Origin: Candidatus Bathyarchaeota archaeon
GTDB lineage: Archaea > Thermoproteota > Bathyarchaeia > TCS64
DNA: 64,000 nt
Reading direction: 5' to 3'
Assembly (NCBI GenBank): GCA_043826455.1
Contig: JBDRQD010000055.1
Coordinates: 177-64,176, forward strand
In this document: positions 18,127 through 48,503 of the stretch, piece by piece
Layout: each line of letters begins with the position of its first letter
Position numbering within the stretch: the stretch's first letter is position 1
The notes under the pieces: model-generated
What the model saw: only the letters and a program-made list of their open reading frames with translations
Told to the model about the DNA's origin: nothing
Database searches by the model: none
Translations under genes and position numbers: made by a program

Positions 18127-18127
18127 G

Positions 18128-21558: not shown

Positions 21559-21559
21559 G

Positions 21560-22923: not shown

Positions 22924-22925
22924 CC

Positions 22926-25348: not shown

Positions 25349-25354
25349 CCAGGC

Positions 25355-30202: not shown

Positions 30203-30682
30203 ATGGACTTAGAGTCACAGCTCCGAGAGTTCTTCGGAGAAGCCGAGAAACGGGTAGCACTGGTGGGTGTCGGCAACCCTCTCAGGGGAGACGATGGCGT
30301 CGGGGTGAAGATTATTGAGCTCCTCGAGGAGGCCGCCCTAGAGAACGTCATGCTGCTGAACACTGAGACTGTGCCAGAGGCTTTCACGGGGAAGGTGGCG
30401 GAGCACAAGCCCACCCACGTGCTGCTTCTGGACGCAGCAAACTTCCGTGGAGAGTTAGGCGACGTGAAGCTTATAGAGTCGTCGAAGATAGGTGGTCAGG
30501 CCATATCCACCCACAGCCTGCCTCTTACCATATTCATAAGCTACATCGAGAAAATGATGGGCGCCAAGGTGCTGCTGCTTGGCGTACAGCCGAGGAACAT
30601 CGAGTTCTTCACCGAGATGAGCCCAGAGGTAGAGAAGACGGCTGAGGATATAGCCGTCTTACTGACAAGAATACTTGGTTAA
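30203..30682 (+). CDS. Hydrogenase maturation endopeptidase (HycI-like), second copy
   Basis: VALVGVGNPLRGDDGVGV and ISTHSLP motifs. 159 aa. It is tail-to-tail with the group-4 hydrogenase operon. Confidence 0.8.
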   Translation: MDLESQLREFFGEAEKRVALVGVGNPLRGDDGVGVKIIELLEEAALENVMLLNTETVPEAFTGKVAEHKPTHVLLLDAANFRGELGDVKLIESSKIGGQAISTHSLPLTIFISYIEKMMGAKVLLLGVQPRNIEFFTEMSPEVEKTAEDIAVLLTRILG

Positions 30683-30693
30683 AGAAAGAGGGT

Positions 30694-31077
30694 TTAATCT
30701 TCCTTCTTGGCCGGCGCTGGGGGTGGGGGCGGCGTCCTGTCAAAGTTGAGGATGCCGTCCTCCTTCTTCAGGACCGCCAGCTCGTACGCTGTTGTGAGCC
30801 ACAAGGCGTCCCTGGGACATATCTCCTCGCACTGCTGGCAGAAAAGGCACTTACCCAGGTCGACGGTGAGGCCCGTGCACTTGGGGCCGGGGCCCCCCTT
30901 CAGGGTTATGGCGAAGCTGGGGCATATCCTCACGCAGAGGGCGCAGCCTATGCACTTGTCTCCGTCGTACTCGTGCTTGCCACGTAGACCTTTCGGTGGC
31001 TCCAGCTTCTCGAAGGGGTATATGAGGGTCGCCGGCTTCTTGAACAGGCTTCTCAGTAGCTCTCTTTCCATGGCCAT
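30694..31077 (-). CDS. NuoI/HycF-like 2x[4Fe-4S] ferredoxin subunit of the membrane hydrogenase
   Basis: CIGCALCVRICP and CLFCQQCEEICP. 127 aa. Confidence 0.85.
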   Translation of the reverse strand: MAMERELLRSLFKKPATLIYPFEKLEPPKGLRGKHEYDGDKCIGCALCVRICPSFAITLKGGPGPKCTGLTVDLGKCLFCQQCEEICPRDALWLTTAYELAVLKKEDGILNFDRTPPPPPAPAKKED

Positions 31078-31078
31078 C

Positions 31079-32101
31079 TTAGATCACTCCCGATATGGCC
31101 ACAACGGCCATCACCTGTAGCACCGCCAGGGGCACCAGGTACCTCCACGCCCCTTGGACAAGCTGGTCTATCCTGAGCCTGGCGAAGAGGACGCTCAGGT
31201 TACTGAGGATGAAGACGCAGAAGGTGGTTTTGAGAATGAACCAGACCACCGGGGGCAGTACTGGTCCCGCGGGTCCGCCCAGGAACAGGCTCGTCAGAAG
31301 GGCGGCCGCCAGCACCATCTTGATGTCACGCCCAGCGTTAAGGAGAGCCAGCTTCTTGCCGCTGTACTCCACCTGCCAGCCGTGGACGATCTCCGTCTCG
31401 GCCTCGCTCATGTCGAAAGGCTTCATCTCCAGTTCCGCTAGTAGGCAGACTGTGTAGATGACGAACCCTATGAAAAGGACCCCACCTGTAATTAGGCCCC
31501 AGACATCGGGCGCGGCCAGGAAGGCGCCGAAGCTGGCCACCTGCCAGTCCACGATCTTGCTTATGCTGAGGCTCCGGGCCAGTATGGCGGGGCCTATGGC
31601 TACCAATCCTAGGGGTATCTCGTATGCCAGCATCATGAAGGCCACCCTGGTGGCTCCCACGGCCCCGAAGAGGTTGCCGCTGCTCCACCCCGCCAGGAAT
31701 ATGGCGAGGACCGTGATGCTCATGAGGAACAGCACCATGATGAGGTCGCCCTCGAAGCTGGCCACAGCGTCCCAGGCCCAGAGGTTGGTGATGCTCTGGA
31801 TGGGTATTAGGAAGGTGGCCGCCAGGGGTATAGCGAAGATGAAGAGCGGCGCGGCGTTAAACACTGGCTTGTTGGCCGCTGCGGGCGTGATGTCCTCCTT
31901 GACCAGCAGCTTGATGAAGTCGGCCAGAGGCTGAAGAATGCCCTGCCACCCGGTGTGGAGGGGGCCCACCCGGTTCTGCAGTCGGGCAGCAACCTTTCTT
32001 TTCACCCACTGGGCGTAGAGACTGTAAGTCAGTATGAAGGATAGTCCCGGGAACACCAGGACCGCTATCAGGGTTGTTATGAGGCTCATTTCTTGTACCA
32101 C
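31079..32101 (-). CDS. NuoH/HycD-like integral membrane subunit
   Basis: RVGPLHTGWQGILQPLADFIKLLVKED (NuoH signature). ~8 TM helices. Confidence 0.85.
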   Translation of the reverse strand: MVQEMSLITTLIAVLVFPGLSFILTYSLYAQWVKRKVAARLQNRVGPLHTGWQGILQPLADFIKLLVKEDITPAAANKPVFNAAPLFIFAIPLAATFLIPIQSITNLWAWDAVASFEGDLIMVLFLMSITVLAIFLAGWSSGNLFGAVGATRVAFMMLAYEIPLGLVAIGPAILARSLSISKIVDWQVASFGAFLAAPDVWGLITGGVLFIGFVIYTVCLLAELEMKPFDMSEAETEIVHGWQVEYSGKKLALLNAGRDIKMVLAAALLTSLFLGGPAGPVLPPVVWFILKTTFCVFILSNLSVLFARLRIDQLVQGAWRYLVPLAVLQVMAVVAISGVI

Positions 32102-33267
32102 TCCAACCCGTATCTGCGGAGCTGCTCCTCGTCCCAGACCCAGGTTTTATCCTTGCCCTCGTCGTAGAATACCATCCTGTCGGTGCAGCTGAAGCAGGGA
32201 TCGATCCCCGCCAGCGTGATGGGTATATCCGCTATGTACCCACCCTTCAGGCGCTCGACGAGGCTGGGGATGTTACCCAGGGTCGGGGCCCTGATCTTGT
32301 GCCTGTAAGGCATGTTCCTGCCGTCGCTGATGGTGTAGTGGATGAGCTCGCCCCGCTGGGCCTCCACTATATAGACAGCCTCTCCCTCAGGCAGCTTCTG
32401 CATTGGGTTGAACTTGACGGCGATCTCTCCTTCCGGTATGTTGTCTAGGACCCACTTGCATATCTTCACAGCCTCCAGTGTCTCCAGGACCCTGACCAGG
32501 ACCTGGCCCAGGACGTCGCCGTTGTCCACGTAGATGTGCTCGAAGGGTATCTCGTCGTAGAGCAGATAGGGCGCCGTCTTCCTGGTGTCGCATGGGACGC
32601 CGCTGCTTCTGGCGTTGGGGCCGCAGCCGCTGAGCCTTATCATGTCCTCCTTGCCCAGGTACCCAACGCCCACCGCACGATCCAGTATCGTCTGCTCGGT
32701 GGATGCGACCTTGATGTAGTAGTTGGTTCTCTCAGCCAAGGCGTCTAGGACCTTGTGCCACCTGGGGAAGTTATCCTTGCTGATGTCACGTCGGACGCCG
32801 CCGACCGTGGGTATGGCGTAGTTGACCCTATTACCGCTGATCTCCTCCAGGAGATCCATGACAAGCTCGCGGTCACGCCACACGTAGTAGAACATGGTGT
32901 CGAATCCTATCTCGTGGGCGGCTACCCCCACCCACAGGAGGTGGCTGTGGATGCGCTCAAGCTCGTGGAAGAAAACGCGGATGTACTTGGCGCGCTCAGG
33001 TATCTCGATGCCTCCCACCTCCTCCACGGCCCCCGTGTAGGCGGTCTGGTGGGCGTTACTGCAGATACCGCAGACGCGCTCAGTTATGTAGAGGTTTTGG
33101 ATGTAGTTGCGGGCCTCCATGGCCTTCTCGATGCCCCTGTGGTTGTACCCGATGCGGGGCTCCACGTCCACCACGGTTTCGCCGTCCACGGTGAAGTAGA
33201 AGCTCTCAGGCTCCTTGAGGGCGGGGTGCTGTGGCCCTATAGGTATAACGAACTGTCTGTCACTCAA
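32086..33267 (-). CDS. Group-4 [NiFe] hydrogenase large subunit (NuoD homologue retaining the Ni-Fe ligands)
   Basis: RVCGICSNAH (N-terminal CxxC) and DPCFSCTDR (C-terminal CxxC), followed by a 29-aa tail. I prefer TTG 33267 (LSDRQFVIPIGPQHP), which overlaps the stop of the upstream NuoC-like gene; the track start at 33360 would add an unlikely 31 aa. Confidence 0.85.
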   Translation of the reverse strand: MSDRQFVIPIGPQHPALKEPESFYFTVDGETVVDVEPRIGYNHRGIEKAMEARNYIQNLYITERVCGICSNAHQTAYTGAVEEVGGIEIPERAKYIRVFFHELERIHSHLLWVGVAAHEIGFDTMFYYVWRDRELVMDLLEEISGNRVNYAIPTVGGVRRDISKDNFPRWHKVLDALAERTNYYIKVASTEQTILDRAVGVGYLGKEDMIRLSGCGPNARSSGVPCDTRKTAPYLLYDEIPFEHIYVDNGDVLGQVLVRVLETLEAVKICKWVLDNIPEGEIAVKFNPMQKLPEGEAVYIVEAQRGELIHYTISDGRNMPYRHKIRAPTLGNIPSLVERLKGGYIADIPITLAGIDPCFSCTDRMVFYDEGKDKTWVWDEEQLRRYGLEWYKK

Positions 33268-33760
33268 CGTCTTTCCCCCACTTTTTTCCGTCCACCTTCT
33301 CACGGAGTGTCTGGATGTCCCACTCCTTGCGCAGGGGGTGAACTCCCTCGGGCCAATCATAATCCAGTATCAACCTCTTTGGGTCTGGGTGCCCCTCGGG
33401 GAACACTCCCAGGAGGTCATTGACCTCCCTTTCGTAGAGGACAGCCCCGTTAAGTATGTCCGTTATGCTGGGGACCTTGGGGTCGTCCTTGGGCACCGAT
33501 ACCTTAAGGTTCATGTTGAAGCCCTCGCTACGCAGGTGGTACACCACCTCGTACCTGTCCTTCATGTCCACGCCCGATATGGTGACGACATGGACGAAGC
33601 CGTGCTTCTCCTTAAGATACTTGACCACGTCCCTGAACACCTCCCGTTTGACGGTGGCGAAGGCCCTGTACAGCCGCGGAACCTTGGTGTCGGATACGTT
33701 TTCCTCGCCGAACTTTTTCACCAGGTCCTGCACGACTTTTGATTGTTCTTTAATGCTCAT
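33260..33760 (-). CDS. NuoC/HycE-N-terminal-like 30-kDa-type subunit
   Basis: 166 aa. FVHVVTISGVDM..YEVVYHL and PDPKRLIL are typical of the NuoC family. It sits between the B- and D-like genes. Confidence 0.8.
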   Translation of the reverse strand: MSIKEQSKVVQDLVKKFGEENVSDTKVPRLYRAFATVKREVFRDVVKYLKEKHGFVHVVTISGVDMKDRYEVVYHLRSEGFNMNLKVSVPKDDPKVPSITDILNGAVLYEREVNDLLGVFPEGHPDPKRLILDYDWPEGVHPLRKEWDIQTLREKVDGKKWGKDVE

Positions 33761-33772
33761 TCACTTTTCACC

Positions 33773-34192
33773 TCAGTACCCCGCGCTCACCAGGAGCTTC
33801 ACGACGCCGTCCAGGATGGCCTCCGGCTTCGGCGGGCACCCTGGAACGAAGGCGTTCACCGGTATCACCTTGTCCACACCCTCCATGACGTTATAGCAGT
33901 CCTGGAAGACGCCGCCACTGATGGCACAGGATCCTACGGCTACCACGAACTTGGGCACGGGCATCTGCTCATAGATTCTTTTAAGCCTGTCCCTAACTTT
34001 CCTGGGGACTGAGCCGGACACCACCATCACATCCGCGTGCCGAGGTGTGCCCTTAAGAACGCCTCCGAACCTCTCCACGTCGAACCTGGGCATCAAGGCG
34101 GCCAACACCTCGATGTCGCAGGCGTTGCACGCGCCGGCGTTGAAGTGGATAAGCCAAGGTGAACGTGTTCTCGCCCATGCAAGTATGCTCAC
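33773..34192 (-). CDS. NuoB-like [NiFe] hydrogenase small subunit (single proximal [4Fe-4S])
   Basis: GACNACDIE, GSCAISGG and PGCPPKPE. Confidence 0.85.
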   Translation of the reverse strand: MSILAWARTRSPWLIHFNAGACNACDIEVLAALMPRFDVERFGGVLKGTPRHADVMVVSGSVPRKVRDRLKRIYEQMPVPKFVVAVGSCAISGGVFQDCYNVMEGVDKVIPVNAFVPGCPPKPEAILDGVVKLLVSAGY

Positions 34193-34193
34193 T

Positions 34194-34547
34194 TTACAGC
34201 CTCCACTTGGCGTTGAGTATCACTATGGAGATGAGGCTGGCACCGGCGTAGAATAGGGGCAGGAGAATGTTCACTGGGTTGGCGAAGGCGGTGACGAGCA
34301 CGAAACCCAACACGTCGAATATCATGAAGTACACCGCATAGATGAAAAAGTTCTCAGTGTTAACCCTAACCTTTGTCGGTTGCACAGGTTCTCCACAAGC
34401 ATATGGGGCCAGCTTTCCTTCGGTGTCGGGGCTCTTGGGCGCGTAGTCGTTACCAAGAGCGATTATGATCAGCGCGACTACTAAGGAAAGTCCCATAATT
34501 AAAGTAAATCCACTAAGACCTGCTAGCAAACTTTGGTCCCTCAACAT
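34194..34547 (-). CDS. NuoA (ND3)-like membrane subunit
   Basis: 117 aa with 3 TM helices. YACGEP matches the NuoA YECG loop, and FMIFDVLGFV matches the NuoA FDVE region. Confidence 0.65.
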   Translation of the reverse strand: MLRDQSLLAGLSGFTLIMGLSLVVALIIIALGNDYAPKSPDTEGKLAPYACGEPVQPTKVRVNTENFFIYAVYFMIFDVLGFVLVTAFANPVNILLPLFYAGASLISIVILNAKWRL

Positions 34548-34772
34548 AGCGTTTTATTGGTGCATATAAAGATTTACGACAGATAAGATTATTCCCCTAA
34601 TTTGGTACAGGTGGATATTCGGGGGTCCGTTTCATAGTATATTTTATTATTTTTGACCCTTTTAGTTGTCTTTCATTTATTAATGGAATCCCCGTTTTTA
34701 GGCGTATCAGCAGCGAAATTTTTATAGTGATAAAGATGATAGGTTAGCAATTCAAGATTAGGGGAGTTGTAA
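34548..34772. promoter_or_regulatory. AT-rich divergent promoter region shared by the two arms of the membrane hydrogenase gene cluster
   Basis: A 225-bp non-coding spacer between divergent starts (34547 minus, 34773 plus). TATA-like elements are gcgaaatttttatagtg (~34714..34730, plus strand) and catataaag (34563..34571, read on the minus strand as ctttatatg). An SD-like aggggag precedes GTG 34773. Confidence 0.5.
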
Positions 34773-35018
34773 GTGGCGTCAGAAGTAGTTCAAATTATAC
34801 TCATTGCCGCAACCCTAGTCTTCGCTTTCATGGCCGCTGGACTCAAGGACCTACTGTACGCCGCCCTTAGCCTGGGCGGGATGGCCATCTGCCTGGGGGG
34901 CCTCTTCTGGACCCTCAACGCGCCGTACGTAGCCTTGTTCCAGATGCTCATCTATGGCGGAGCTGTGGTTGTCCTCTTCGTCTCCGTGATAATGTTCGTG
35001 AGGAGTGGCGAAGGATGA
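34773..35018 (+). CDS. NuoJ N-terminal-like / MbhD-like small membrane subunit
   Basis: 81 aa with 3 TM helices, GTG start. FQMLIYGGAVVVLFVSVIMF resembles the ND6/NuoJ core. Confidence 0.6.
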   Translation: MASEVVQIILIAATLVFAFMAAGLKDLLYAALSLGGMAICLGGLFWTLNAPYVALFQMLIYGGAVVVLFVSVIMFVRSGEG

Positions 35019-35287
35019 GTGAGAGTAAGATCAGCCTCTACGCAGGCATCGTAGTAAGCGTACTCATCTTCGGGTCCCTCGTCCTGATCCTGGTCAACGA
35101 GCCGTTCCCCAGCTCCAAGCTGGTGCATAGCGAGATGATCCCGACTCAGCCAGGTTCACAGATCGGAGGCGCGATGAGTGGGTTCCTCTGGGACTTCAGA
35201 GGAATGGATCTGGTGTTCCAGACACTAATCCTATTCACGACAGCCATCTGCTGTCTAGCAATGCTGAGAGAGGAGATACGGAAATAA
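35015..35287 (+). CDS. MnhB/MbhE-like small membrane subunit
   Basis: 90 aa. DFRGMDLVFQTLILFTTAI resembles the MnhB-family RG-x-D..E..V.F motif. Overlaps the upstream gene by 4 nt. Confidence 0.55.
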   Translation: MSESKISLYAGIVVSVLIFGSLVLILVNEPFPSSKLVHSEMIPTQPGSQIGGAMSGFLWDFRGMDLVFQTLILFTTAICCLAMLREEIRK

Positions 35288-35288
35288 G

Positions 35289-35600
35289 ATGAATGCAGTG
35301 GTTTGGCTCGGCTCGGCTTTCGCGTTGTTCGCCATAGGACTCTATTGTGTGTCCAAGCGAAACATGATACGCATCCTTCTAGGAATAGAGATAATTCTCA
35401 ACTCCGGAAACCTGGCGTTCATATATTTCGCGTCAAATTATCCCGGCCTAGGCGTCGTGGACCCCCTCGGCCAGTCAGTGGTCTTCATGTCCATAGTGAT
35501 CGGTGGGGCAGTGATGGCCATCGGCTTAGTTCTCATAGTCAACGCCTACAAGCAGTTCAAGACAACCGACTCCCAAGAGCTTAGGAGGTTGAAGTGGTGA
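35289..35600 (+). CDS. NuoK (ND4L)/MnhC-like membrane subunit
   Basis: 103 aa with 3 TM helices. NMIRILLGIEIILNSGNLAFIYF (conserved Glu in TM2). Confidence 0.8.
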   Translation: MNAVVWLGSAFALFAIGLYCVSKRNMIRILLGIEIILNSGNLAFIYFASNYPGLGVVDPLGQSVVFMSIVIGGAVMAIGLVLIVNAYKQFKTTDSQELRRLKW

Positions 35601-37081
35601 TACCCACAGCCCTCTACTACCTTTTCGCGCCTCTGCTGGTCGTCCTTGTGGGCGTAATGGCGGAGAGAATGGGCTCCCCCAAGCTACGGGACGGCTTTTC
35701 CATACTTGCGAGTATCTGGGGGATTGTCTCCGTCTGGATGCTTTTCAACATGCTCCAGGCTTCCCCTGACAAGATCCTGGTAATCACCATCGGCGGGAAC
35801 CCGCCTCTGGCAGCGTGCCTGGAGATCGATGCACTAAGCATCTACGTGGCCTTCAGCGCCGCCCTTCTGGGGTTCTTCGCCAACGTATACAGTTATAGCT
35901 ACATGGACCACGATACGCGGCTGACTGAGTACTACACGCTGCTCCACGCTCTCGTAGTGGGAATCATTGGAGTGGCTCTCGCAGGCGACCTGTTTACAAT
36001 GTTCATCTTCTGGGAGACCATGGGGATATCAAGCTACGCTCTGGTCGCCTTCAGGAAGGACACCCCTGGGCCCATCGAGGCGGGCTTCAAGTACATGATA
36101 ATGGGCAGCGTCGGCAGCACGATCCTGTTCTTCGGGGCAGCCCTGCTCTACGGGATGACGGGTACACTGAACCTGGCTCAGATGAGCTCAGTGATCCGGG
36201 GGCAGGCTATAAACCCCTGGCTGTACCTGGTCTTCGCCATGCTGATCGTCGGGTTCGGCGTAAAATCCGCCATTGTACCCATGCACACATGGCTCCCCGA
36301 CGCCCACCCAGAGGCGCCCAGCCCCATCAGCGCCATGCTGTCAGGGATAGTCATCGAGACCGGCCTCTACGCCATGGTCAGGGTGCTCTTCCTGCTCTTC
36401 GAGCCAAGCTTCTTCACAATGCCCATGATGATCCTAGCCATCATAACCATGAGCCTGGGGAACATCATGGCCCTGCTTCAGACCGACCTTAAGCGTCTGC
36501 TGGCCTACTCCAGCATCGCCCAGATCGGGTACATGCTGATAGGCGTCTCAACGGGTCTGAGCTATGGCCTCCTCGGGACGTTCATGCACGTGTTTAACCA
36601 CTCCTTGATGAAGGGGATCGCTTTCCTCGCCGCGGGCAACATTGTGCATGAGACAGGGACCCGTGACATCAACGAGATGCAGGGCGTAGGAAGAATGATG
36701 CCATTAACCACCTTGGCCATCACCGTAGCTTTCCTGGGCCTAGGCGGCGTACCCGGAACCAGCGGCTTCATCAGCAAGTTCATACTGTTCAACGCCTCGC
36801 TGGGCGCCGGCCTCCCAATACTGGCGATTGTCGGCGTCCTCAACAGCACGCTGAGCATGGCATACTACCTGAGAGTAATCATGACCCTCCTCAGCGGCAA
36901 GATGCCGGAAGGTAAGGTAGTAAAAGAGGCCCCGCTCATGATGGTGGGAGTCACATTAGTCATGTCAATACTCGTTATCGCCTTCGGGCTTTACCCTAGC
37001 CCCATAATGGGCATCTCAACCGATGCCTCTGAGGCCCTGATTAAGGGCCTCGTCAACTACATAGGAGCTGTTCTAAGATGA
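35594..37081 (+). CDS. Antiporter-like subunit (NuoN/NuoM/MnhD family), extra copy between the K- and L-like genes
   Basis: 495 aa, ~14 TM helices. FKSAIVPMHTWLPDAHPEAPSPISAMLSG and LKRLLAYSSIAQIGYML are proton-pumping-subunit signatures. GTG start overlaps the nuoK-like stop. Confidence 0.85.
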   Translation: MVIPTALYYLFAPLLVVLVGVMAERMGSPKLRDGFSILASIWGIVSVWMLFNMLQASPDKILVITIGGNPPLAACLEIDALSIYVAFSAALLGFFANVYSYSYMDHDTRLTEYYTLLHALVVGIIGVALAGDLFTMFIFWETMGISSYALVAFRKDTPGPIEAGFKYMIMGSVGSTILFFGAALLYGMTGTLNLAQMSSVIRGQAINPWLYLVFAMLIVGFGVKSAIVPMHTWLPDAHPEAPSPISAMLSGIVIETGLYAMVRVLFLLFEPSFFTMPMMILAIITMSLGNIMALLQTDLKRLLAYSSIAQIGYMLIGVSTGLSYGLLGTFMHVFNHSLMKGIAFLAAGNIVHETGTRDINEMQGVGRMMPLTTLAITVAFLGLGGVPGTSGFISKFILFNASLGAGLPILAIVGVLNSTLSMAYYLRVIMTLLSGKMPEGKVVKEAPLMMVGVTLVMSILVIAFGLYPSPIMGISTDASEALIKGLVNYIGAVLR

Positions 37082-39261
37082 GTGCACTAGAGACATTCCT
37101 GGAGTACCCTGGGCCGTTCCTCACGTGGATGCTCCCGATCATTGGCGCCATAATGATGCCCATCCTTGGGAAGATAAACCACAAGCTGAGAGACTACGGA
37201 GCAGTCCTGTTCGCGTTCTCTGCTGTGCTAGCCGCGGGAACCATGATACCTTACCTGTTCAATGGTCACCCGCCCGGGGACATCAAGCTCTTAACCTGGT
37301 TAACTCTGCCCAACGGCACCCCACTGGAGTTCGGAGTACTAGTTGACCCCCTCAGCATAATTATATGTAACGTTGTGGCTCCCATCAGCTTCCTCATCGT
37401 GGTCTACTCCACGTCGTACATGCACGGGGACCCCGGCCTTGACAGGTACTGGTTCCTGTTCCTGTACTTCATCGGGAACATGCTGCTGCTGGTCCTAGCC
37501 AACAACCTCATAATGACCCTGATAGGCTGGGAGGGCGTAGGTATATGCAGCTACGGCCTCATCGGCTACTACTACAGGGACCCGGAGAAAAGATGGTTGG
37601 GCGGTCCGCCCCCCACCAAGATGTTCCCCCCCAGCCACGCCGGCATGAAGGCCTTCGTGGTCACAGGCGTCGGGGACGTGCTGCTCCTGGCAGGTATCTT
37701 CATAGTGTACCAGTACGCTGGAACCTTCAACTACGTGGAGCTCATCCACCACTCCCAGGAGTGGCTAGCGCACATGGCCCACGTTCCTGGGCTCGTGGCG
37801 TTGATGGGTGTTCTTCTACTGGGGGGCCCCATAGGCAAGTCTGCCCAGTTCCCACTGCACGAGTGGCTTCCTGAGGCGATGGCGGGCCCCACAAGCGTAT
37901 CGGCTCTCATCCACGCCGCCACCATGGTCAAGGCGGGCGTGTACCTGGTAGCCAGGCTGAGCCCCATCTTCTACATAGGAACATGGACCCTTCACCTTCC
38001 CGAGGCGCAGGTGTACTTCATCGCCATAGCCATAGTGGGCGCCTTCACCTGCTTCCTGGCGGCCAGTCAAGCCCTAGTGGCGTTAGAGCTCAAGAAGATA
38101 CTGGCCTACTCGACTGTAAGCCAGATCGGTTACATGATGATGGGCATAGGGCTGGGCGGGTTCTCCGAGGAGGCCTACATTGTCGGGCTGACCGCTGGGG
38201 TGTACCACCTGGCCAGCCACGCGTTGTTCAAGGCTGCGCTGTTCCTGGGCGCAGGGTCAGTGATCCACGCGGTCGAGAGCATCTACACCTTCGACATGGG
38301 TGGGCTGAAGAAGCACATGCCCAAGACCTACTGGCTCATGGTGTTAGCCACCTTAAGCCTATCAGGTATCCCGGTGTTCAGCGGGTTCTGGAGCAAGGAC
38401 GCCGTATTCATCTCCGCCCTGGTGGCGGGGACACCCCTGGCCTACGCGTTGCTGGCGGTGGGCGTCCTCTGCGCGGCCATGACCTTCGCTTACAGCATCA
38501 GGTTCATTAGCAGGGTCTTCAGGCACGATGAGAGCAAGTTCATCAAGGACCTGGAGCACCACGGACACCACGTCCACGAGGCCCCCACAGTCATGTGGGC
38601 GCCCATAGCGATACTGGTGGCCCTGTTCTGCACAGTAGGTCTGCTGGGCTTCGCGGGCCTGTTCAACCAGGGGTTGAACCCCGAGATATTCATCGAGGAG
38701 CAGATGCACCACATGGCCGAGTATATCCTGCCTCACGAAGTAGCGGCACACCTCCACGTGCCCCATATCAGTAGCTCAATCAAGCTCGTGGGCGTGGGGC
38801 TGAGCGCGGTCGCACTAGCCATCGGCGGGTACCTGGGCTACAACTTCTACTGGACCCGCAAATGGGACTCCTGGGCCTGGGTGCAGGCAAGCCGAATGCG
38901 AACCATCACCCACAGCTTCCTCTGGAACAGGTGGTACATGAACCCGGTATACTACAGGGTCTTCGTGGACGGCACACTCGCCCTGAAACAGGTACTATAC
39001 GACAGCTTCGAGGCAAAGGTACTCATCCCTCTCAGCGACTTCGTGGCCAAGACATCTCAGACAGTCAGCGACGTCATGTACGCCGTCGTAGAGGAGAGAA
39101 CCATCTTCGGGATCATAAACACCGGGGTGCCCTCAACCGTTGTCAAGGTGTACAACCGGGTCAAGAAGACGCAGACAGGTCTACTAGGCATAAACATAAT
39201 CTACGTGATGGCCCTGCTCCTGTTGCTAATAATAGGAATGATGATCATGGGAGGTCTGTAA
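37078..39261 (+). CDS. NuoL/MnhA-like antiporter subunit with long C-terminal extension
   Basis: 727 aa. GKSAQFPLHEWLPEAMAGPTSVSALIHAATMV and KKILAYSTVSQIGYMMMG. There are ~200 extra C-terminal residues with additional TM helices, as in the NuoL lateral-helix region. Confidence 0.85.
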   Translation: MSALETFLEYPGPFLTWMLPIIGAIMMPILGKINHKLRDYGAVLFAFSAVLAAGTMIPYLFNGHPPGDIKLLTWLTLPNGTPLEFGVLVDPLSIIICNVVAPISFLIVVYSTSYMHGDPGLDRYWFLFLYFIGNMLLLVLANNLIMTLIGWEGVGICSYGLIGYYYRDPEKRWLGGPPPTKMFPPSHAGMKAFVVTGVGDVLLLAGIFIVYQYAGTFNYVELIHHSQEWLAHMAHVPGLVALMGVLLLGGPIGKSAQFPLHEWLPEAMAGPTSVSALIHAATMVKAGVYLVARLSPIFYIGTWTLHLPEAQVYFIAIAIVGAFTCFLAASQALVALELKKILAYSTVSQIGYMMMGIGLGGFSEEAYIVGLTAGVYHLASHALFKAALFLGAGSVIHAVESIYTFDMGGLKKHMPKTYWLMVLATLSLSGIPVFSGFWSKDAVFISALVAGTPLAYALLAVGVLCAAMTFAYSIRFISRVFRHDESKFIKDLEHHGHHVHEAPTVMWAPIAILVALFCTVGLLGFAGLFNQGLNPEIFIEEQMHHMAEYILPHEVAAHLHVPHISSSIKLVGVGLSAVALAIGGYLGYNFYWTRKWDSWAWVQASRMRTITHSFLWNRWYMNPVYYRVFVDGTLALKQVLYDSFEAKVLIPLSDFVAKTSQTVSDVMYAVVEERTIFGIINTGVPSTVVKVYNRVKKTQTGLLGINIIYVMALLLLLIIGMMIMGGL

Positions 39262-40740
39262 ATGTACGGTTCACTTTGGCTAGCCATACTGGCTCCTGTT
39301 CTCTTCATACCCATAGTCTATTTCTTAGGTAGAAGAATGGGGAAACTTGTAAGCTGGGTAGCTCTGGTTCCCCTCCTCTACAGCACACTATTTTTCCTAA
39401 GCCTCCTAGGAACGGTGGCCGAGAGTCCGGTCAGCGAGTACTTCTACTGGCTCCCCGGGATAAGGTTCGGGCTATACGCAGACGGGCTGAGTTTACCCAT
39501 CGTCCTAACCGTCGCGGTCCTGTCAGCCATCATAGTGATCTACTCACAGCCTTATATGGTGCACAGCATCCACGAGCAGTACCACCACGAGAACAACAAG
39601 GCCCACGCCACATACTACGCGCTCTACCTCGCCTACGTGACGAGCATGATGGGCGTGGTACTCAGCACCAACCTGTTCGAGTTCTACCTGTTCTTCGAGT
39701 TGATGATAATCCCCTCATGGGCCCTCATCAACGCCTACGGCTCAGGTGAACGCGAGAAGATAGGCCTCATGTACCTTCTCTGGTCCATCGTGGGCGCAGT
39801 GGCCTTCGTCACAGGGGCGCTCTCAGCCTACGCACAGACAGGCTCCTTCGAGTTGGTAGGCCTGGTAAAGCTGATAGGCTCCCCGTGGGCAGGGTTTATC
39901 GTCGTATCCATGTTACTGGGCCTATGTGTGAAGATGGCCCTATTCGGTCTACACATATGGCTGCCTTTCGCCCACGCGGAGGCACCAACCCCCATAAGCG
40001 CCCTGCTGAGCCCGGCCATGATCGGCCTGGCGGCTTACGCCATTGTGAGGATGCTTCTACCCATCACGGGGGTGATGGACACCTACTTCACGTTGACCCT
40101 GATCTGGGGCCTGGCGACAATGATCTACGGAGGGATGATGGTGATGGCGCAGACGGACATCAAGCGTCTGCTGGCCTACTCCAGCATGAGCCAGATGGGG
40201 TACCTGTTCGTGGGCATCGCCAGCGCCACAACCCTAGGCGTGGGAGGAGCCATGATGCACTACATCAGCCACGGCCTGGGAAAGGCGGCTCTTTTCCTTA
40301 GCGTCGGGGCCATAATGCACCAGACAGGCAATAGAGACATCCGTCAACTCGGCGGCCTCGCGGCGAAGATGCCCATCACAGCGATGGCCTTCATAATAGG
40401 GGCCATGAACATCTCCGGCATCCCGCCCACCATGGGCTTCGTGTCCAAGTTGATGATATTCATGGGCGCCTTCGGCCCAGGGGTCCACGAGATCTCCACG
40501 GAGCTCGTGTTAGCCCTCGTAGCCATCCTGTCCACCGCTTTAACGATAGGGTACACCATGTGGGCGATGCGTCGCATCTTCTACGGTCCTATCCCTGAGC
40601 ATCTTGAGGACGTGAAAGAGGCGCCCCCCCTGATGACCATACCCATGGTTCTGCTGTGCGTCCTATCAATACTGATTGGCATCTATCCGAGGCCAATCAT
40701 CGACCCAATAATGGAGGTAGTAGCGGCGCTACTCATGTGA
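39262..40740 (+). CDS. NuoM/MnhD-like antiporter subunit
   Basis: 492 aa. VKMALFGLHIWLPFAHAEAPTPISALLS and IKRLLAYSSMSQMGYLFVG. Confidence 0.85.
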   Translation: MYGSLWLAILAPVLFIPIVYFLGRRMGKLVSWVALVPLLYSTLFFLSLLGTVAESPVSEYFYWLPGIRFGLYADGLSLPIVLTVAVLSAIIVIYSQPYMVHSIHEQYHHENNKAHATYYALYLAYVTSMMGVVLSTNLFEFYLFFELMIIPSWALINAYGSGEREKIGLMYLLWSIVGAVAFVTGALSAYAQTGSFELVGLVKLIGSPWAGFIVVSMLLGLCVKMALFGLHIWLPFAHAEAPTPISALLSPAMIGLAAYAIVRMLLPITGVMDTYFTLTLIWGLATMIYGGMMVMAQTDIKRLLAYSSMSQMGYLFVGIASATTLGVGGAMMHYISHGLGKAALFLSVGAIMHQTGNRDIRQLGGLAAKMPITAMAFIIGAMNISGIPPTMGFVSKLMIFMGAFGPGVHEISTELVLALVAILSTALTIGYTMWAMRRIFYGPIPEHLEDVKEAPPLMTIPMVLLCVLSILIGIYPRPIIDPIMEVVAALLM

Positions 40741-40741
40741 G

Positions 40742-42244
40742 GTGAATGATGTGGTAAACAACATGCTGTTCCTTATGATCCTGGTGGCGTTCCTGCCGGC
40801 ACCCCTCGTCTACTTGATAGGAAAAAGTGTGGGTAAAAAGGTGGGCTGGGTGGTCTTCGCCGTCCTCCTAGGGATCACCATCGTCCTCGGGGGGCTCATC
40901 TCCGTGGTCGAGCACGAGGTACTGTTCGAGGAGTACAGCTGGGTGGCCTCACCCGTTAAACTAACCTTTGGGTTGTTAGCTGACGGGCTCAGCGTGCCCA
41001 TGCTGTTCACGTACCTGTTCGTGTTCGCTGGGGCGACTCTATTCAGTGTGCCCTACATGGAGAGACGGCTCAAGCTCGGCGACATCGAGGAGAGCAACAC
41101 GCAGTACGCAAGGTTCTACACCTTCTTCCTGCTGTACGCGGCCAGCGTCGCTGGGTCCATGCTCGCCACCAACCTGATAGAGTTCTTCCTCTTCTTCGAG
41201 ATGGCTCTCGTCTTCTCGTGGCTGCTGGTGTTCCTCTACGGCTACGGGGACCGGAAGCGCACCTCCATGCTATACTTCATATGGACCCACATCGGAGGCG
41301 GCGCCCTCCTGGTGGGCATCCTCGGCGCATACTGGACGGTGGGCAGCTTCGAGATCGCTGACCTGGCGCACATCGCCTCGCACCCCAATGTCCTGTGGAT
41401 TGGGATCGCCATCACCCTCGGCCTCTTCGTCAAGATAGGTGCTCTCGGCTTCCACGGCTGGATGCCGGACACATACTCCGAGTCGCCAGCCCCCGTCAGC
41501 GCGGTTCTAGGAGCCACCTCGGTGATGCTGAGCACCTACGCCATGGCCAGGCTTCTCCCACCCTTCCAGGAGGTACTTCAGGGAATCAGCGGATGGTTCA
41601 TGCTCTGGGCCCTAGCCACGATCCTCTACGCCGGCATCATGGCGCTGGCTCAGAGGGACACAAAGCGCCTGGTGGCCTACCTGAGCATGAGCCAGATGAA
41701 CTACTGTGTTCTAGGAGTCTTCACATTCGTACCATACGGCGTCCTCGGCGCGGTATCCTACAGCATCAGCCACGGCTTAGCCATCGGGCTGCTGTTCCTC
41801 GTCTCAGGCGCCCTGCTATACGTGACTGGGACACGGGACATGACCAAGATGGGCGGGCTGTCAGAGAAGCTTCCCATCACTCTCTTGGCTACCCTAGCGG
41901 GTTTCCTAACCATAGGTGGAGTGCCCCCCGCGGTGGGCTTCAAGTCCAAGTTCATCCTCCTGAGCGGGGCCTTCGTAAGGGGCTTCGCGACGGGGTGGAT
42001 GGAGTTGCTTGTAGCCATCCTGGCGGGAAGCCTGGCCACATTGATCACCCTGGGATACGAGTTCCGGACAATATGGCGGGTATACTACGGCAAACTGCCT
42101 GATGCCATCAAGGAGGTGGCGCGTGTGCCTGACGTGATGGTCGTCGCGTTTGTGGCGCTCAGCGCGCTTTCAATAGTGTTCGGTATATGGCCTGCGCTGT
42201 TCACGAACGCCCTGGACGTGTTCATAGAGCATATATTCCACTAA
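40742..42244 (+). CDS. NuoN/NuoM-like antiporter subunit
   Basis: 500 aa. VKIGALGFHGWMPDTYSESPAPVSAVLG and TKRLVAYLSMSQMNYCVLG. The start is GTG 40742 or ATG 40763. Confidence 0.85.
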   Translation: MNDVVNNMLFLMILVAFLPAPLVYLIGKSVGKKVGWVVFAVLLGITIVLGGLISVVEHEVLFEEYSWVASPVKLTFGLLADGLSVPMLFTYLFVFAGATLFSVPYMERRLKLGDIEESNTQYARFYTFFLLYAASVAGSMLATNLIEFFLFFEMALVFSWLLVFLYGYGDRKRTSMLYFIWTHIGGGALLVGILGAYWTVGSFEIADLAHIASHPNVLWIGIAITLGLFVKIGALGFHGWMPDTYSESPAPVSAVLGATSVMLSTYAMARLLPPFQEVLQGISGWFMLWALATILYAGIMALAQRDTKRLVAYLSMSQMNYCVLGVFTFVPYGVLGAVSYSISHGLAIGLLFLVSGALLYVTGTRDMTKMGGLSEKLPITLLATLAGFLTIGGVPPAVGFKSKFILLSGAFVRGFATGWMELLVAILAGSLATLITLGYEFRTIWRVYYGKLPDAIKEVARVPDVMVVAFVALSALSIVFGIWPALFTNALDVFIEHIFH

Positions 42245-42260
42245 AAACACCTTTTTTTCA
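42245..42260 (+). terminator. Oligo-T tract after the last antiporter-like gene
   Basis: A T7 run at 42252..42258 lies 8 nt after the TAA stop. Archaeal RNA polymerase terminates at oligo-T tracts. Confidence 0.4.
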
Positions 42261-42380
42261 ACATTTTATATTACATCACACTGCAAGTACTTTTACACAC
42301 GAGCCGCCCAGGGAAGCCTCTTTCACGGTTTTTCGGGTGTGCATAAGTTTTTTTAGGCGAGAAAACGTTGCTGATAGGAA

Positions 42381-42698
42381 ATGAGCATAGCTGTCATTGG
42401 CCCCTCCTCTTTCGTCACATGCTTCGAACTCATCGGCGCCGCAGGCTACGAGGAGCACGAGGAGGGGACAGTGGTCGCGACCCTAACCCGCCTGGTCAAC
42501 GAGGGTGACTTCAAGCTCATCGTCATACCTGAACGATACGCTGGAGCCACCCGGCCCATAAGGGAGGAGGTCATGAAGAGGGGCAGGATCACCCCCATCT
42601 TCGCCCTCATCCCCGACCTGACCATGGAGACAGGTATGAGGATGGAGGAGCTCCAGGCGGTGGTCTCGCTCGCAATAGGGACAAGGTTGGAGTTATAG
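42381..42698 (+). CDS. atpF: A-type (V-type) ATP synthase subunit F
   Basis: 105 aa. MSIAVIGPSSFVTCFELIGA..LIVIPERYA is typical of subunit F. Confidence 0.8.
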   Translation: MSIAVIGPSSFVTCFELIGAAGYEEHEEGTVVATLTRLVNEGDFKLIVIPERYAGATRPIREEVMKRGRITPIFALIPDLTMETGMRMEELQAVVSLAIGTRLEL

Positions 42699-42702
42699 AA
42701 CA

Positions 42703-43035
42703 ATGGAAATGAAGAGCATCCTTTCATTGGGCGGAAGACTGAAGAGGCTCCTAGCCAAGGCCGAGGAGGAGGCCCAGGGGATGGTGTCCGAGGCCCAGGC
42801 CAAGGCGGACGAGATCGTCAACAACGCCAAGAAGGAGTCCGAGCAACGTTTAACAAAGGCTCAGTACCGCACAGATCTCGACGAGTTCCTGGTGGACGCC
42901 GAGAGGGAGGCCAAGGAGAAGGCCAAGCAAGTCGAGAAGGACTACGCCAAAAGAGCCGATGACATCAGAGTCGTCCCCGGCGACAAGGTCAAGGAGGCCG
43001 CGGGGATGGTGGTTAAGGAGGTGCTGCCGAAATGA
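42703..43035 (+). CDS. atpH: A-type ATP synthase peripheral-stalk subunit H (V-type G-like)
   Basis: 110 aa, a single long charged helix (LLAKAEEEAQGMVSEAQAKADEIVNNAKKESEQ). Assigned partly from its position in the atp operon. Confidence 0.65.
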   Translation: MEMKSILSLGGRLKRLLAKAEEEAQGMVSEAQAKADEIVNNAKKESEQRLTKAQYRTDLDEFLVDAEREAKEKAKQVEKDYAKRADDIRVVPGDKVKEAAGMVVKEVLPK

Positions 43036-43655
43036 GCCAGGACTTGGACACCAAGCTGATAGAGAAGATCGTGGAGCAGCGTAACCAGTTCCTGGTAGAG
43101 GCCAAGGAGAGGGCCCAGAGAATACTGGAGAAGGCCGAGGAGGATCGCGAGAGGATCATTGAGCAGACCGCTAAAAGCATCGAAAGTATAGTGGGATCAG
43201 AGCTCAGGGCCGTTCATGACAGGATCGTGGGCAGGGCCCAGTTGGAGGGCAGGAGGAAGCTCCTTGAGGCCAGGATTGAGGTCTTGGAGACTGTCAAGTC
43301 CGAGGCCATGGTGGAGCTCAGATCCCTGGCGGAGGGCAAACACCCCGAGTATGACTACTCGGAGATACTGGTCAAGCTCATAGTGGAGGCAGACGAGGCC
43401 ATAGTGGAAGACGAGTACGTCGTCTCCGCCAACAAGAGGGACCTGGCGTACCTGAAGAAGAACCTGAGCCAGGTGAGCAAGGCCCTCGGTGGCAAGAAGG
43501 TGGTGCTCAGCGAGACCCCCCGGGATATCCTTGGAGGGGTGATCGTGATGAACTCTGACGGCACCAAGACACTGGAGAACACCCTTGAGAGGAGGCTGGA
43601 AGCCGCCAACAGCAGGCTCCAGACAGAGATCGCCGTGAAGCTGGGGGTGATCTAG
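43032..43655 (+). CDS. atpE: A-type ATP synthase subunit E
   Basis: 207 aa with an N-terminal coiled coil and a C-terminal globular domain (GGVIVMNSDGTKTLENTLERRLE). Confidence 0.8.
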   Translation: MSQDLDTKLIEKIVEQRNQFLVEAKERAQRILEKAEEDRERIIEQTAKSIESIVGSELRAVHDRIVGRAQLEGRRKLLEARIEVLETVKSEAMVELRSLAEGKHPEYDYSEILVKLIVEADEAIVEDEYVVSANKRDLAYLKKNLSQVSKALGGKKVVLSETPRDILGGVIVMNSDGTKTLENTLERRLEAANSRLQTEIAVKLGVI

Positions 43656-46822: not shown

Positions 46823-46824
46823 GC

Positions 46825-47442
46825 ATGTCCGCTGCATCCGGCGTCAGGCCCACAAAGGGCTACCTCATGGAGACCAAGACTCGCATCCAGGTCGTGGAGC
46901 GCGGGACCGAGTTCCTGAAGCTCAAACGCGACCAGCTGGCCAAGCAGCTCACAGAATCCTTGGATGTGCTCCGGGGCCGACGCATCCTCCTGCTGAAGAA
47001 CCTGCAGGAGGCCTACAGCGCCTTGACGGCGGCGTACCTGAGCCTGGGGCCCACGGAGGTGAAGAGCCAGGTGCGGGCCATCAGGAAGCCCCTCACATTG
47101 GAGGTGCTGCCCCGCAGCGTCATGGGTGTGGTCTACCCGTCTGTACGCGTCAAGGATAAACCCGAGATAGCGGCCGAGCTGGACATAACCCTCGCCCACG
47201 CAGCAGAGCAGGTGTACGAGATCATCGAGGAGCTCATCCACCTGGCCGAGTTCGAGGAGCGGGTGGAGCGCATCGCCCAGGAGCTGGGCACAACGAACCG
47301 CAAGGTGAACGCCCTGGAGAACTTTGTAATACCGGACATGAAGGCCATCATCAAGTTCATAGAGGACAAGCTGGACGAGGAGAGCATGGAGGAGCTTGTA
47401 CGGACAAAGCTCATAGGAGGTGCTAAGACATCGAGAAGATGA
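46825..47442 (+). CDS. atpD: A-type ATP synthase central-stalk subunit D
   Basis: 205 aa. VRPTKGYLMETKTRIQVVERGTEFLKLKRDQL and RKVNALENFVIPDM. Confidence 0.85.
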   Translation: MSAASGVRPTKGYLMETKTRIQVVERGTEFLKLKRDQLAKQLTESLDVLRGRRILLLKNLQEAYSALTAAYLSLGPTEVKSQVRAIRKPLTLEVLPRSVMGVVYPSVRVKDKPEIAAELDITLAHAAEQVYEIIEELIHLAEFEERVERIAQELGTTNRKVNALENFVIPDMKAIIKFIEDKLDEESMEELVRTKLIGGAKTSRR

Positions 47443-48464: not shown

Positions 48465-48503
48465 CCCCAACCATTTATCTCTCCAGAACCATTCTCTATA
48501 CCC

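Follow-up and report, generated by a model that had tools for sequence, protein, structure and literature searches.

Hfo is an 11-subunit [NiFe] hydrogenase with the genomic architecture of Fpo, described in Bathyarchaeia by Loh, Herve and Brune in 2021 (PMC7886697). Its D subunit keeps the L1 and L2 motifs and falls in HydDB subgroup 4g; the Hfo of subgroup Bathy-6 forms clade 4g-6 with the gene list hfoA, B, CD, H, I, J, K, L, M, N, and the enzyme has been described as linking energy-converting hydrogenases with complex I more closely than Mbh does (PMC7886697). The subject of this work is a related cluster at positions 30203-42244 of a 64,000 nt stretch of DNA (the window) from Candidatus Bathyarchaeota archaeon, assembly GCA_043826455.1, contig JBDRQD010000055.1, positions 177 to 64,176 of the forward strand. 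The cluster is considered likely to encode a membrane-bound energy-converting [NiFe] hydrogenase of the complex-I/Fpo-like “Hfo” kind (4g), a recombinant mosaic of head and pump which would couple ferredoxin:H2 chemistry to ion movement. The idea of a complex-I-like hydrogenase is already known; what would be new is the recurrent exchange of heads on one pump and ATPase chassis, for which no report was found in the searchable literature.

The likeness to Hfo lies in a NuoD-like D subunit with L1 and L2, a full A-N set of subunits, the lack of both NuoEFG/FpoFO and the Mrp-type MbhABCF module, and the same archaeal class; all 11 Nuo/Fpo core types are present together with a D that has the Ni-Fe-binding residues. 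However, the canonical Hfo locus (L015; large subunit 48-49% identical to that of the window) is colinear with a fused CD, A-B-CD-H-I-J-K-L(649)-M-N, and is followed by an FrhB-like gene which the window lacks downstream. In the window C and D are unfused genes, two genes make up J, K is followed by N-L-M-M' and not by L-M-N, the antiporter-like subunits number four instead of three, L has 727 rather than 649 residues, and the genes form two divergent operons rather than one, beside genes for an ATPase. The cluster is a distinct variant of the Hfo kind, set apart by an additional M, by its split and divergent layout and by an Mbh-like J2.

Heimdallarchaeia have complex-I-like group 4 hydrogenases, assigned to groups 4j-4q, whose membrane arms are shorter than that of complex I (doi 10.1101/2024.07.04.601786); they share with the window cluster a NuoBCDI peripheral arm, an apparently active Ni-Fe site, a complex-I-type membrane arm and the absence of NuoEFG, with ferredoxin as the proposed donor. 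The related loci compared with the window are labelled L001-L103 and are either hydrogenase-type or NiFe-less; one Asgard CD-fused relative (P0127, L019) falls in the clade neighbouring the window family. Qi et al. in 2021 depicted “fpo-like” clusters in Bathyarchaeia whose operons are rearranged and which contain an extra copy of fpoM; these were not treated as hydrogenases (PMC8407382). This NiFe-less complex (PMC8407382; L022-L103) resembles the window cluster in its K-N-L-M(-M') order, in existing in three- and four-antiporter versions and in its ATPase neighbourhood; it differs in a colinear operon, the lack of HycI, and a D without Ni-Fe cysteines or tail.

The membrane-bound hydrogenase (MBH) of Pyrococcus furiosus (group 4d; 6CFW) provides the closest solved D (MbhL) and an MbhD/MbhE-style split J, and the N of the window scores best on the MbhH-type family PRK08376. 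MBH differs in having a single antiporter-like subunit and an MrpEFG/B-like Na+ module (MbhA-C and MbhF), and in its lack of NuoA and NuoL; neither MbhA-C nor MbhF, expected of the MBH/Mrp-linked group 4d, was found in the window cluster by Pfam. Hyf (formate hydrogenlyase-2, group 4a) of E. coli also has several antiporter-like subunits (HyfB, D and F) despite a small redox span, as well as HycI-type maturation and a homologous C-terminal tail; it differs in its formate dehydrogenase input, its gene order and the lack of NuoA- and NuoJ-type subunits. Lastly, Chadwick et al. in 2018 reportedly described a “2M” complex I, which carries NuoM twice and whose NuoL has an extended lateral helix. 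The window cluster likewise encodes a pair of M-type subunits, and the lateral-helix region of its L exceeds that of E. coli NuoL by ~30 residues, but this extension, or a longer one, also occurs in single-M relatives; “2M” complex I differs in its quinone-reductase head.

The hydrogenase head and its maturation

Subunits were assigned from the listing of open reading frames (ORFs), followed by Pfam and NCBIfam profiles with their family cut-offs. All 13 subunit genes and the gene for HycI are intact ORFs; the head and its membrane anchor lie on the minus strand, in the order A-B-C-D-H-I.

30203..30682, plus strand: HycI-type maturation endopeptidase for the large subunit (TIGR00142 hycI, 137.5 bits, cut-off 119.1; PF01750, 7.9e-18)
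30694..31077, minus strand: I, NuoI/HycF-like ferredoxin-type subunit, two [4Fe-4S] clusters (Fer4 families; TIGR01971 NuoI, 1.6e-25)
31079..32101, minus strand: H, NuoH-like membrane anchor (PF00146, 6.7e-88; NCBIfam matches are the NuoH and FpoH families only)
32086..33267, minus strand: D, [NiFe] large subunit, NuoD homologue, 393 aa (PF00346 and PF00374)
33260..33760, minus strand: C, NuoC-like, not fused to D (PF00329, 3.4e-34)
33773..34192, minus strand: B, hydrogenase small subunit, NuoB homologue (NF005012, 169 bits, cut-off 116; also above the TIGR01957 cut-off)
34194..34547, minus strand: A, NuoA-like (PF00507, 3e-07; PYACGEP motif)

D was aligned with HycE, HyfG and NuoCD of E. coli (from NC_000913); its start at 33267, which gives 393 aa, agrees with the homologues, whereas the longest-ORF start at 33360 does not. 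The four cysteines of its L1 motif (RVCGICSNAH) and L2 motif (DPCFSCTDR) fall column for column on C241, C244, C531 and C534 of HycE, giving the RxCGxCxxxH and DPCxxCxxR pattern of group 4 large subunits at the Ni-Fe ligand positions. In complex I and Fpo the NuoD-type subunit is without these ligands and carries a quinone- or phenazine-site Tyr in an R-x-D/E-Y motif; at this place D reads RVCG against R[ILM][DE]Y in NuoD-type sequences, so that the quinone-site Tyr is replaced by Gly. Among solved structures D matches MbhL (7.9e-86) and HycE (1.1e-80), both ahead of Nqo4 (7e-69). An Arg-Met bond of D aligns with the HycI cleavage site R537|M538 of HycE, and the 29 residues after the cleavage-site Arg are homologous to the HycE tail in the alignment; this tail is predicted to be removed by HycI after nickel insertion. 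The HycI gene adjoins that of I in all related hydrogenase-type loci, and the four ligands, the tail and HycI are conserved throughout the window family (69-98% identity). Public annotation often labels these proteins as “NADH-quinone oxidoreductase subunit D/L”. A large subunit 71% identical to that of the window (P0100, L010 10001-11206), with both Cys motifs, lies between radical-SAM genes and near a NikR-like gene, with no other subunits of the complex within 10 kb.

The remaining head subunits have the make-up of group 4, with a NuoB-like subunit binding one [4Fe-4S] cluster, a NuoI-like subunit binding two and a NuoH-like membrane subunit. B has the HycG-type CNAC (CxxC) instead of the NuoB CC motif, together with GSCA and PGCPP, for one proximal [4Fe-4S] cluster; I has both CxxCxxCxxxCP motifs and, by its likeness to MBH and NDH-1, is the probable docking site of ferredoxin. 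The PYACGEP loop and the FDV Asp of A align with E. coli NuoA. The electron-input part of complex I or Fpo is missing: no NuoEFG, FpoF or FrhB was found in the cluster or elsewhere among the Pfam-scanned window ORFs of ~100 aa or more.

A sequence-only reading of the window had proposed a group-4-type membrane [NiFe] hydrogenase with a complex-I-type arm and four antiporter-like proteins, encoded by 13 genes in two divergent arms. The ORFs and the Pfam and NCBIfam profiles bear this out, as they do the presence of a NuoA-like subunit with YACGEP, of a NuoL-length subunit (TIGR01974, 475 bits) and of a HycI-like endopeptidase beside the cluster; the claims that both cysteine pairs stand at the Ni-Fe ligand positions and that NuoE/F/G and FpoF are absent were equally upheld. 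The same reading took the gene order to be that of complex I, which is correct for A-B-C-D-H-I and J-K; beyond these N precedes L (K-N-L-M-M'), and the order is not J-K-L-M-N.

A pump module probably shared by two heads

The distal membrane arm is encoded on the plus strand, where the gene order is J1-J2-K-N-L-M-M', and is followed by an ATPase operon.

35594..37081, plus strand: N, antiporter-like subunit in the N position (MbhH/MrpD/NuoN-like), 495 aa, chimeric (best families PRK08376, PRK08377 and NDH_I_N)
35981..36313, plus strand: recombination junction within N, in the area of the ultra-conserved TM7 segment (edge of the blastn high-scoring segment pair and identity step)
37078..39261, plus strand: L, NuoL-type, 727 aa (TIGR01974, 475 bits, cut-off 407.5)
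39262..40740, plus strand: M, NuoM-type, 492 aa (TIGR01972, 296 bits, cut-off 263.8)
40742..42244, plus strand: M', second, divergent M-like subunit, 500 aa (TIGR01972, 239 bits, below the cut-off of 263.8)
42381..48464, plus strand: A-type ATPase genes F, H/G, E, A, B, D, C (Pfam)

A colinear A-B-C-D-H-I-J-K-N-L-M-M' operon was found at L022, in which L is 76% identical to that of the window and D has neither the Ni-Fe cysteines nor the tail. Scanning metagenomes with this D gave 80 loci, and the D family is Cys-less throughout; it is recognised by the motifs [DE]RM[AV]M[VA]DT and, at the C-terminus, SIDPWYLD[SA]DR, and its top matches among solved structures are Nqo4 and MbsL, not MbhL. In the NiFe-less D, for example at L103 4919-6037, RM[AV]M replaces RxCG or RxDY, leaving neither a Ni-Fe Cys nor a quinone Tyr. 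Several of these NiFe-less loci are followed by ATPase genes; L022 is not beside them.

The closest comparison is with L103, from ENA ERZ27256988, a NiFe-less colinear cluster after which come the ATPase operon and PK_C-like gene also seen in the window. The head and proximal membrane subunits of the two are distant, with amino acid identities of 23% for A, 37% for B, 28% for C, 36% for D, 37% for H, 31% for I, 34% for J and 45% for K. N is 30-62% identical up to ~residue 210 and 82-94% after ~residue 225; L, M and M' are 86, 89 and 90% identical, AtpF, AtpA, AtpB and AtpD 99, 92, 98 and 97%, and the PK_C-like gene 90%. What the window has in common with L103, at 86-99% amino acid identity, is the C-terminal 55% of N together with L, M, M' and the neighbouring ATPase genes. 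By blastn one 13.2-kb segment pair joins window 35981-49157 to L103 8904-22074 at 85.6% nucleotide identity, and in 150-nt windows the nucleotide identity steps from 40-65% to 80-94% at ~36.2-36.3 kb. The junction falls on the most conserved stretch of the antiporter-like subunits, with the TM7 Lys and the HxWLPDAH motif, which would be a natural crossover site; the splice point maps to TM6/TM7 of N.

Trees and other pairs of loci give the same picture. In bootstrapped trees N separates hydrogenase-type from NiFe-less loci, while L, M and M' mix the two with 89-100% support. When N is divided, residues 1-200 give the split between the two types at 100% bootstrap; residues 226-495 group the window, L001 and L103, L021 with L059, and L009 with L049, each at 100%, with 0% for a split of all hydrogenase-type loci. 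The hydrogenase-type L009 and the NiFe-less L049 are 37% identical in D, 34% in H, 70% in N, 84% in L and 90% in M; L009 and L021, both hydrogenase-type, are 81% identical in D, 63% in L and 52% in M. L002 and L006, again both hydrogenase-type, are 94% identical in H, 95% in K, 91% in N, 75% in L and 52% in M. In sliding-window comparisons the switch falls at ~residue 200-240 of N for pairs of the two types and in the C-terminal ~100 residues of L for L002 and L006. The switch recurs in three independent pairs of a hydrogenase-type and a NiFe-less locus.

On this evidence the complex reads as a mosaic, in which a hydrogenase lineage supplied the head, the proximal membrane subunits and N up to ~residue 200, and the rest of N with L, M, M' and the A-type ATPase operon is the chassis used with a NiFe-less head in very close relatives. 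Homologous recombination at the conserved TM7 segment of N would have brought the two parts together, and such head/pump exchanges would have occurred at least three times in this group of Bathyarchaeia. It is probable that one distal pump module and ATP synthase operon serves under either head, with repeated exchange (three times or more) through recombination inside the nuoN-like gene.

Proposed mechanism and direction

Redox partner, ion pumping, subunit arrangement and direction are proposals here; ferredoxin docking and the coupling of H+/H2 chemistry to ion movement are modelled on what is established for MBH, FHL and photosynthetic NDH-1. Electrons would pass between ferredoxin, docked on I, and the Ni-Fe site in D along a wire of the two [4Fe-4S] clusters in I and the one in B; H+/H2 catalysis at the interface of D, B and H would then be coupled to translocation along H, A, J1+J2, K, N, M, M' and L. 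The long lateral helix of L would clamp the membrane arm, HycI would cleave the 29-residue D tail once nickel is inserted, and the two arms would be transcribed from back-to-back archaeal promoters. A span of ~0.1-0.2 V between ferredoxin and H2 would cover at most two to three ions at 120-150 mV, too few for four antiporter-like modules and the proximal channel to move one ion each per electron pair; the coupling may therefore be sub-stoichiometric, or some modules may exchange rather than pump.

Enzymes of this class are reversible, and the conversion of protons by reduced ferredoxin is established for MBH. For the window complex, H2 evolution from reduced ferredoxin, feeding the neighbouring ATP synthase, is slightly favoured; a primary pump of this sort, oxidising ferredoxin and evolving H2 as in Pyrococcus, is suggested since the chassis is shared with a NiFe-less head and lies beside ATP synthase genes. 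The opposite direction is a serious possibility, though it is given somewhat less than even weight: H2 would be oxidised and ferredoxin reduced by an ion gradient, kept up through ATP hydrolysis by the neighbouring ATPase, to provide the Wood-Ljungdahl pathway with low-potential electrons. Gradient-driven reduction of ferredoxin is what Eha and Ehb of methanogens do; the syntenic MvhAGD-HdrABC and Mer-like genes upstream of the locus resemble the Mvh/Hdr and Eha/Ehb pairing of hydrogenotrophs, and on thermodynamic grounds many antiporter modules would give a large driving force for an uphill reaction. The same was proposed for Hfo by Loh et al. (PMC7886697). However, the use of one pump and ATPase chassis under a NiFe-less head in close relatives fits a primary pump which feeds ATP synthesis, and moving five ions per 2 electrons would overshoot the needs of ferredoxin reduction by a wide margin; direct evidence points neither way.

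Alternative explanations

Several points weigh against a ferredoxin-linked, ion-pumping hydrogenase that arose by exchange of heads. A 2025 paper still lists 4g as uncharacterised; no ferredoxin gene is linked to the cluster, and the redox partner is assumed. On thermodynamic grounds the small ferredoxin/H2 span is hard to square with four antiporter-like modules if each moves one ion per 2 electrons. The large-subunit tree used below for placement is a neighbour-joining tree built without model selection. The L extension is equal or longer in relatives with three antiporter-like genes and a single M, and does not by itself prove an in-line arm of four modules; an L as long or longer in these relatives runs counter to a simple rule of a longer helix for more modules. 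The genes upstream of the cluster in L103, where the left border of the exchanged block was sought, have no match in the window, and among the contigs examined there is none with clusters of both types.

The last two points bear on the mechanism of exchange, and it is conceivable, at roughly one chance in three by our estimate of the mechanism alone, that the distal similarity arose by gene conversion or reciprocal recombination between co-existing paralogous clusters rather than by replacement of the head at one ATPase-adjacent locus. Recurrent exchange in three lineages requires the two types to meet in one cell, some NiFe-less clusters such as L022 are located away from ATPase genes, and the left flanks of the window and L103 differ, as expected after intrachromosomal rearrangement between two N genes. 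However, both types are ATPase-adjacent, in different assemblies; no examined contig carries the two together, and there is no near-identical pair of the two types, the best pairs having 84-90% amino acid identity.

An improbable alternative is that the complex is a vertically evolved missing link between Mbh/Ech-type hydrogenases and complex I, outside any described subgroup, which is close to how the sequence-only reading had seen it. The complex does combine a hydrogenase active site with a NuoA/H/J/K/L/M/N-type arm and an MbhE-like J2, and its large subunit is at most 52% identical to anything outside its own family. However, the Hfo/4g concept was already published (PMC7886697) and has been extended to Asgard archaea (doi 10.1101/2024.07.04.601786), so the cluster is not unassignable as that reading held. 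Moreover, the distal arm is 86-90% and the head 23-45% identical to the NiFe-less complex of L103, with a breakpoint inside N, which argues for a recent exchange of modules and not for a preserved ancestral state; the intermediate position gives way to a mosaic, with the distal arm shared through recombination.

It is very unlikely that the cluster encodes an ordinary Fpo/Nuo-like carrier-reducing respiratory complex with relic cysteines, as the public annotation would have it, or is a metagenome assembly chimera joined in a conserved segment, where assemblers can misjoin; ligands, tail and HycI are family-wide, the quinone-site Tyr is lost, the same architecture recurs in at least five independent assemblies (five hydrogenase-type and four NiFe-less assemblies independently carry the pump and ATPase arrangement), L001 shares the chimeric N at 90% over its full length, and identity to the right of the junction is 80-94% rather than 100%, so that as far as sequence can show this explanation is refuted.

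Antiporter-like subunits

All four large plus-arm proteins carry Proton_antipo_M, and L, M and K exceed their NCBIfam cut-offs; the complex-I-type subunit set is thus complete (A, B, C, D, H, I, J, K, L, M and N) with one extra M, and the membrane arm has the A, H, J, K, N, M and lateral-helix L expected of complex I and Fpo. The TM5 Glu, TM7 Lys and TM12 Lys are kept in all four antiporter-like subunits (E141, K224 and K395 in N). L also keeps the L-specific residues D200, H279, K385, K440 and D441, equivalent to D178, H254, K342, K399 and D400.

The structure of L was modelled by AlphaFold2 from 54 sequences, with a mean pLDDT of 78.7; the model features one continuous helix from residue 623 to 723, and its top Foldseek matches are NuoL, ND5 and NdhF with a target-normalised TM-score of ~0.8. 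By alignment the lateral-helix region (TM15-TM16) is ~30 aa longer than in E. coli NuoL. The long helix was also considered as evidence for a fourth module in line with the others, which was downgraded as the extension is present in three-antiporter relatives. In these the complete L genes encode 736-757 aa (L009 3972-6245, L011 3999-6209 and L006 1221-3323), and L of L009 has a further insertion of 27 residues in the lateral-helix region. At residues ~167-190 of L (window 37570-37640) the TM5-TM6 loop contains a conserved insertion of ~14 residues, KRWLGGPPPTKMFPPS, which is invariant in the family, has no counterpart in E. coli NuoL or the L of canonical Hfo, and is modelled with pLDDT < 50.

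M corresponds, as its orthologue, to the single M found in three-antiporter relatives, with 48-52% identity. M' has an identity of 38% with M and of 40-41% with the M of relatives, and has no equivalent of K342; it was found in L002, L005, L021, L022, L028, L031 and L103. A recent tandem duplication as the origin of M' is ruled out by its 38% identity to M, and for the same reason M' is regarded as an old paralogue.

Subunits J1, J2 and K

The three small subunits at the start of the plus arm are encoded as follows.

34773..35018, plus strand: J1, N-terminal half of the NuoJ equivalent (TM1-3), 81 aa (PF00499, 5.1e-13; MbhD, 2.4e-05)
35015..35287, plus strand: J2, second half of the J equivalent, 90 aa, like MbhE and the MrpA C-terminus (profile against PDB sequences)
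35289..35600, plus strand: K, NuoK-like (PF00420, 1.2e-25; NF004320, 57.9 bits, cut-off 57)

The TM3 Tyr/GAxxVLF motif of J1 aligns with E. coli NuoJ. J2 has no Pfam or NCBIfam match; a profile of six orthologues run against the PDB finds the MrpA C-terminus (6z16_A, 1e-3) and MbhE (6cfw_E, 2e-3), with the match running through the motif dfRGxDxxxQ/E, which is LWDFRGMDLxFQT in the J2 of the window. J2 is kept in all relatives and lines up with the C-terminal half of J where that protein is unsplit (L015-L017); from the PDB matches and this alignment it is taken as the second half of a split, Mbh/Mrp-flavoured NuoJ equivalent. It had earlier been called MnhB-like, a reasonable approximation given its likeness to MbhE and the MrpA C-terminus, although no family matches and the protein is J2. 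K keeps the TM2 Glu; the second Glu (Glu72 of E. coli NuoK) is missing, with no acidic residue at its position. K also carries a 5-residue loop insertion common to its family.

Family placement

Close homologues of D and L are almost all proteins from Bathyarchaeia/Bathyarchaeota metagenome-assembled genomes. The window family comprises large subunits at least 69% identical, and its nearest outside relatives are at most 52% identical; in the neighbour-joining tree of 135 large subunits it is sister to the CD-fused Bathyarchaeial and Asgard Hfo-type clades. Members of the family always have separate C and D, a split J, the order K-N-L-M(-M'), divergent arms and HycI beside I. Four antiporter-like genes are present in the window, L002, L005 and L021 and three in L009 and L011; the nearest outside relatives L016-L018 and L020 have other layouts with two antiporter-like genes, and the Asgard L019 has only A-B-CD-H-I at the locus. 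A comparison of gene order across relatives, which had been called for, shows the divergent layout and ATPase synteny to be conserved within the family, whereas the canonical Hfo of L015 is colinear. The split into two operons was also considered as a unique feature, and was rejected because rearrangements are many in the related clades (L016-L020).

The assignment of the window cluster to 4g would follow from published HydDB calls (Bathy-6 Hfo and Bathyarchaeota BA1) and from the neighbour-joining tree; the HydDB-classified BA1 sequence KPV62298.1 was not found among the named cluster members. With respect to clade 4g-6 the comparison consists of the sister position in that tree and 48-52% identity. 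To the earlier question of whether the cluster falls inside a characterised subgroup with the same subunit set the answer is mixed, as the subgroup has been described but not characterised biochemically, and the subunit set differs from that of Hfo.

A number of observations were made on loci around the family. Directly after the Hfo operon of L015, at 17370-18896, lies the gene for a 508-aa FrhB/FdhB-like protein with a CBS domain, which could be an input module linked to F420 or another cofactor; such FrhB/FdhB-like adjacency was noted for other 4g clusters in the 2025 paper. The Cys-less sequences P0189, P0229, P0201, P0181 and P0226 are scattered inside Cys-bearing hydrogenase clades of the large-subunit tree, which suggests repeated, independent loss of the Ni-Fe site (Ehr-like forms). 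L018 1-13015, whose source label is Methanoregula sp., carries a pair of adjacent group 4 hydrogenase gene sets, of which the second has a 1094-aa antiporter-like fusion protein and a split J. Cluster contigs filed as Krumholzibacteriaceae, Desulfaltia and Patescibacteria (L002, L007, P0007, P0082, P0336 and P0350) carry the window-type cluster and are probably binning contaminants.

Predicted promoters and genomic neighbourhood

Two non-coding regions of the locus are expected to control its expression.

34548..34772, no strand: predicted divergent promoter region, A/J1 intergenic, 225 bp (archaeal consensus elements)
42245..42380, plus strand: probable pump-operon terminator and ATPase-operon promoter, an oligo-T stretch then a TTTTATATTA box (archaeal consensus; predicted)

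On the A side of the intergenic region there is a BRE/TATA element ~25 nt upstream of the start codon of A (leaderless), and on the J1 side a TATA box and a GGGGAG ribosome-binding site; across eight related loci the region has two conserved end blocks and an AT-rich, variable middle. These elements suggest divergent, back-to-back archaeal promoters for the two arms, which would be co-regulated. Directly after M' an oligo-T stretch and a TATA-like box precede the ATPase genes F, H, E, A, B, D and C. Synteny of ATPase genes with the pump module is found in hydrogenase-type and NiFe-less loci alike (L002, L005, L009, L021, L058, L071, L072 and L103), and the ATPase genes follow the last pump gene wherever sequence of the window family extends that far. 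The ATPase membrane subunits I (a) and K (c), sought as a guide to the coupling ion, are not in the window; in L011 a V_ATPase_I gene is directly beside the pump module.

Upstream of the hydrogenase locus lie two Hdr-like gene sets and an HdrA-MvhD-HdrC-HdrB-MvhG-MvhA-protease cluster, followed by genes for MobA, ThiF, FdhD and a luciferase-like protein (possibly Mer); the MvhAGD-HdrABC cluster and the luciferase-like gene are syntenic with the hydrogenase head in L001, L004 and L011. The dense Hdr region at window 11477-25801 contains HdrC-HdrB-HdrC-HdrB, a split HdrA-like pair and an MvhD-HTH fusion, and then a 1000-aa double HdrA, MvhD, HdrC, HdrB, MvhG, MvhA (group 3-type NiFe) and a second maturation protease; in L001 and L011 part of this region is syntenic with the hydrogenase head. 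At window 213-8275 the gene for a 1243-aa transglutaminase-like protein with Ig-like domains precedes those for a MoxR-type AAA ATPase and a DUF58 protein; this BatA/MoxR-style module is unrelated to the hydrogenase locus. A gene for ribosomal protein S26e and the A-type ATPase agree with an archaeal host.

Implications

How a soluble hydrogenase and an Mrp-type antiporter merged into complex I, and how redox chemistry in the head drives pumps up to 200 Å away, are long-standing questions. Near relatives with the same L-M-M' pump under two very different heads mark a natural boundary between modules at TM6/TM7 of N, and their loci supply matched pairs of complexes in which the ions pumped per electron pair can be compared. 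If the exchange of heads is true, plug-and-play evolution of the complex I superfamily would be ongoing and not only ancient, and the count of pump modules would not depend on how large a redox span the head has, which would make these loci a natural experiment on coupling stoichiometry; four antiporter-like modules on a couple that pays for at most two to three ions pose an energetic puzzle. The routine annotation as “NADH-quinone oxidoreductase” hides a hydrogenase. Bathyarchaeia are among the most abundant archaea of sediments, and whether this enzyme produces or consumes H2 matters to models of how carbon and hydrogen cycle in the subsurface.

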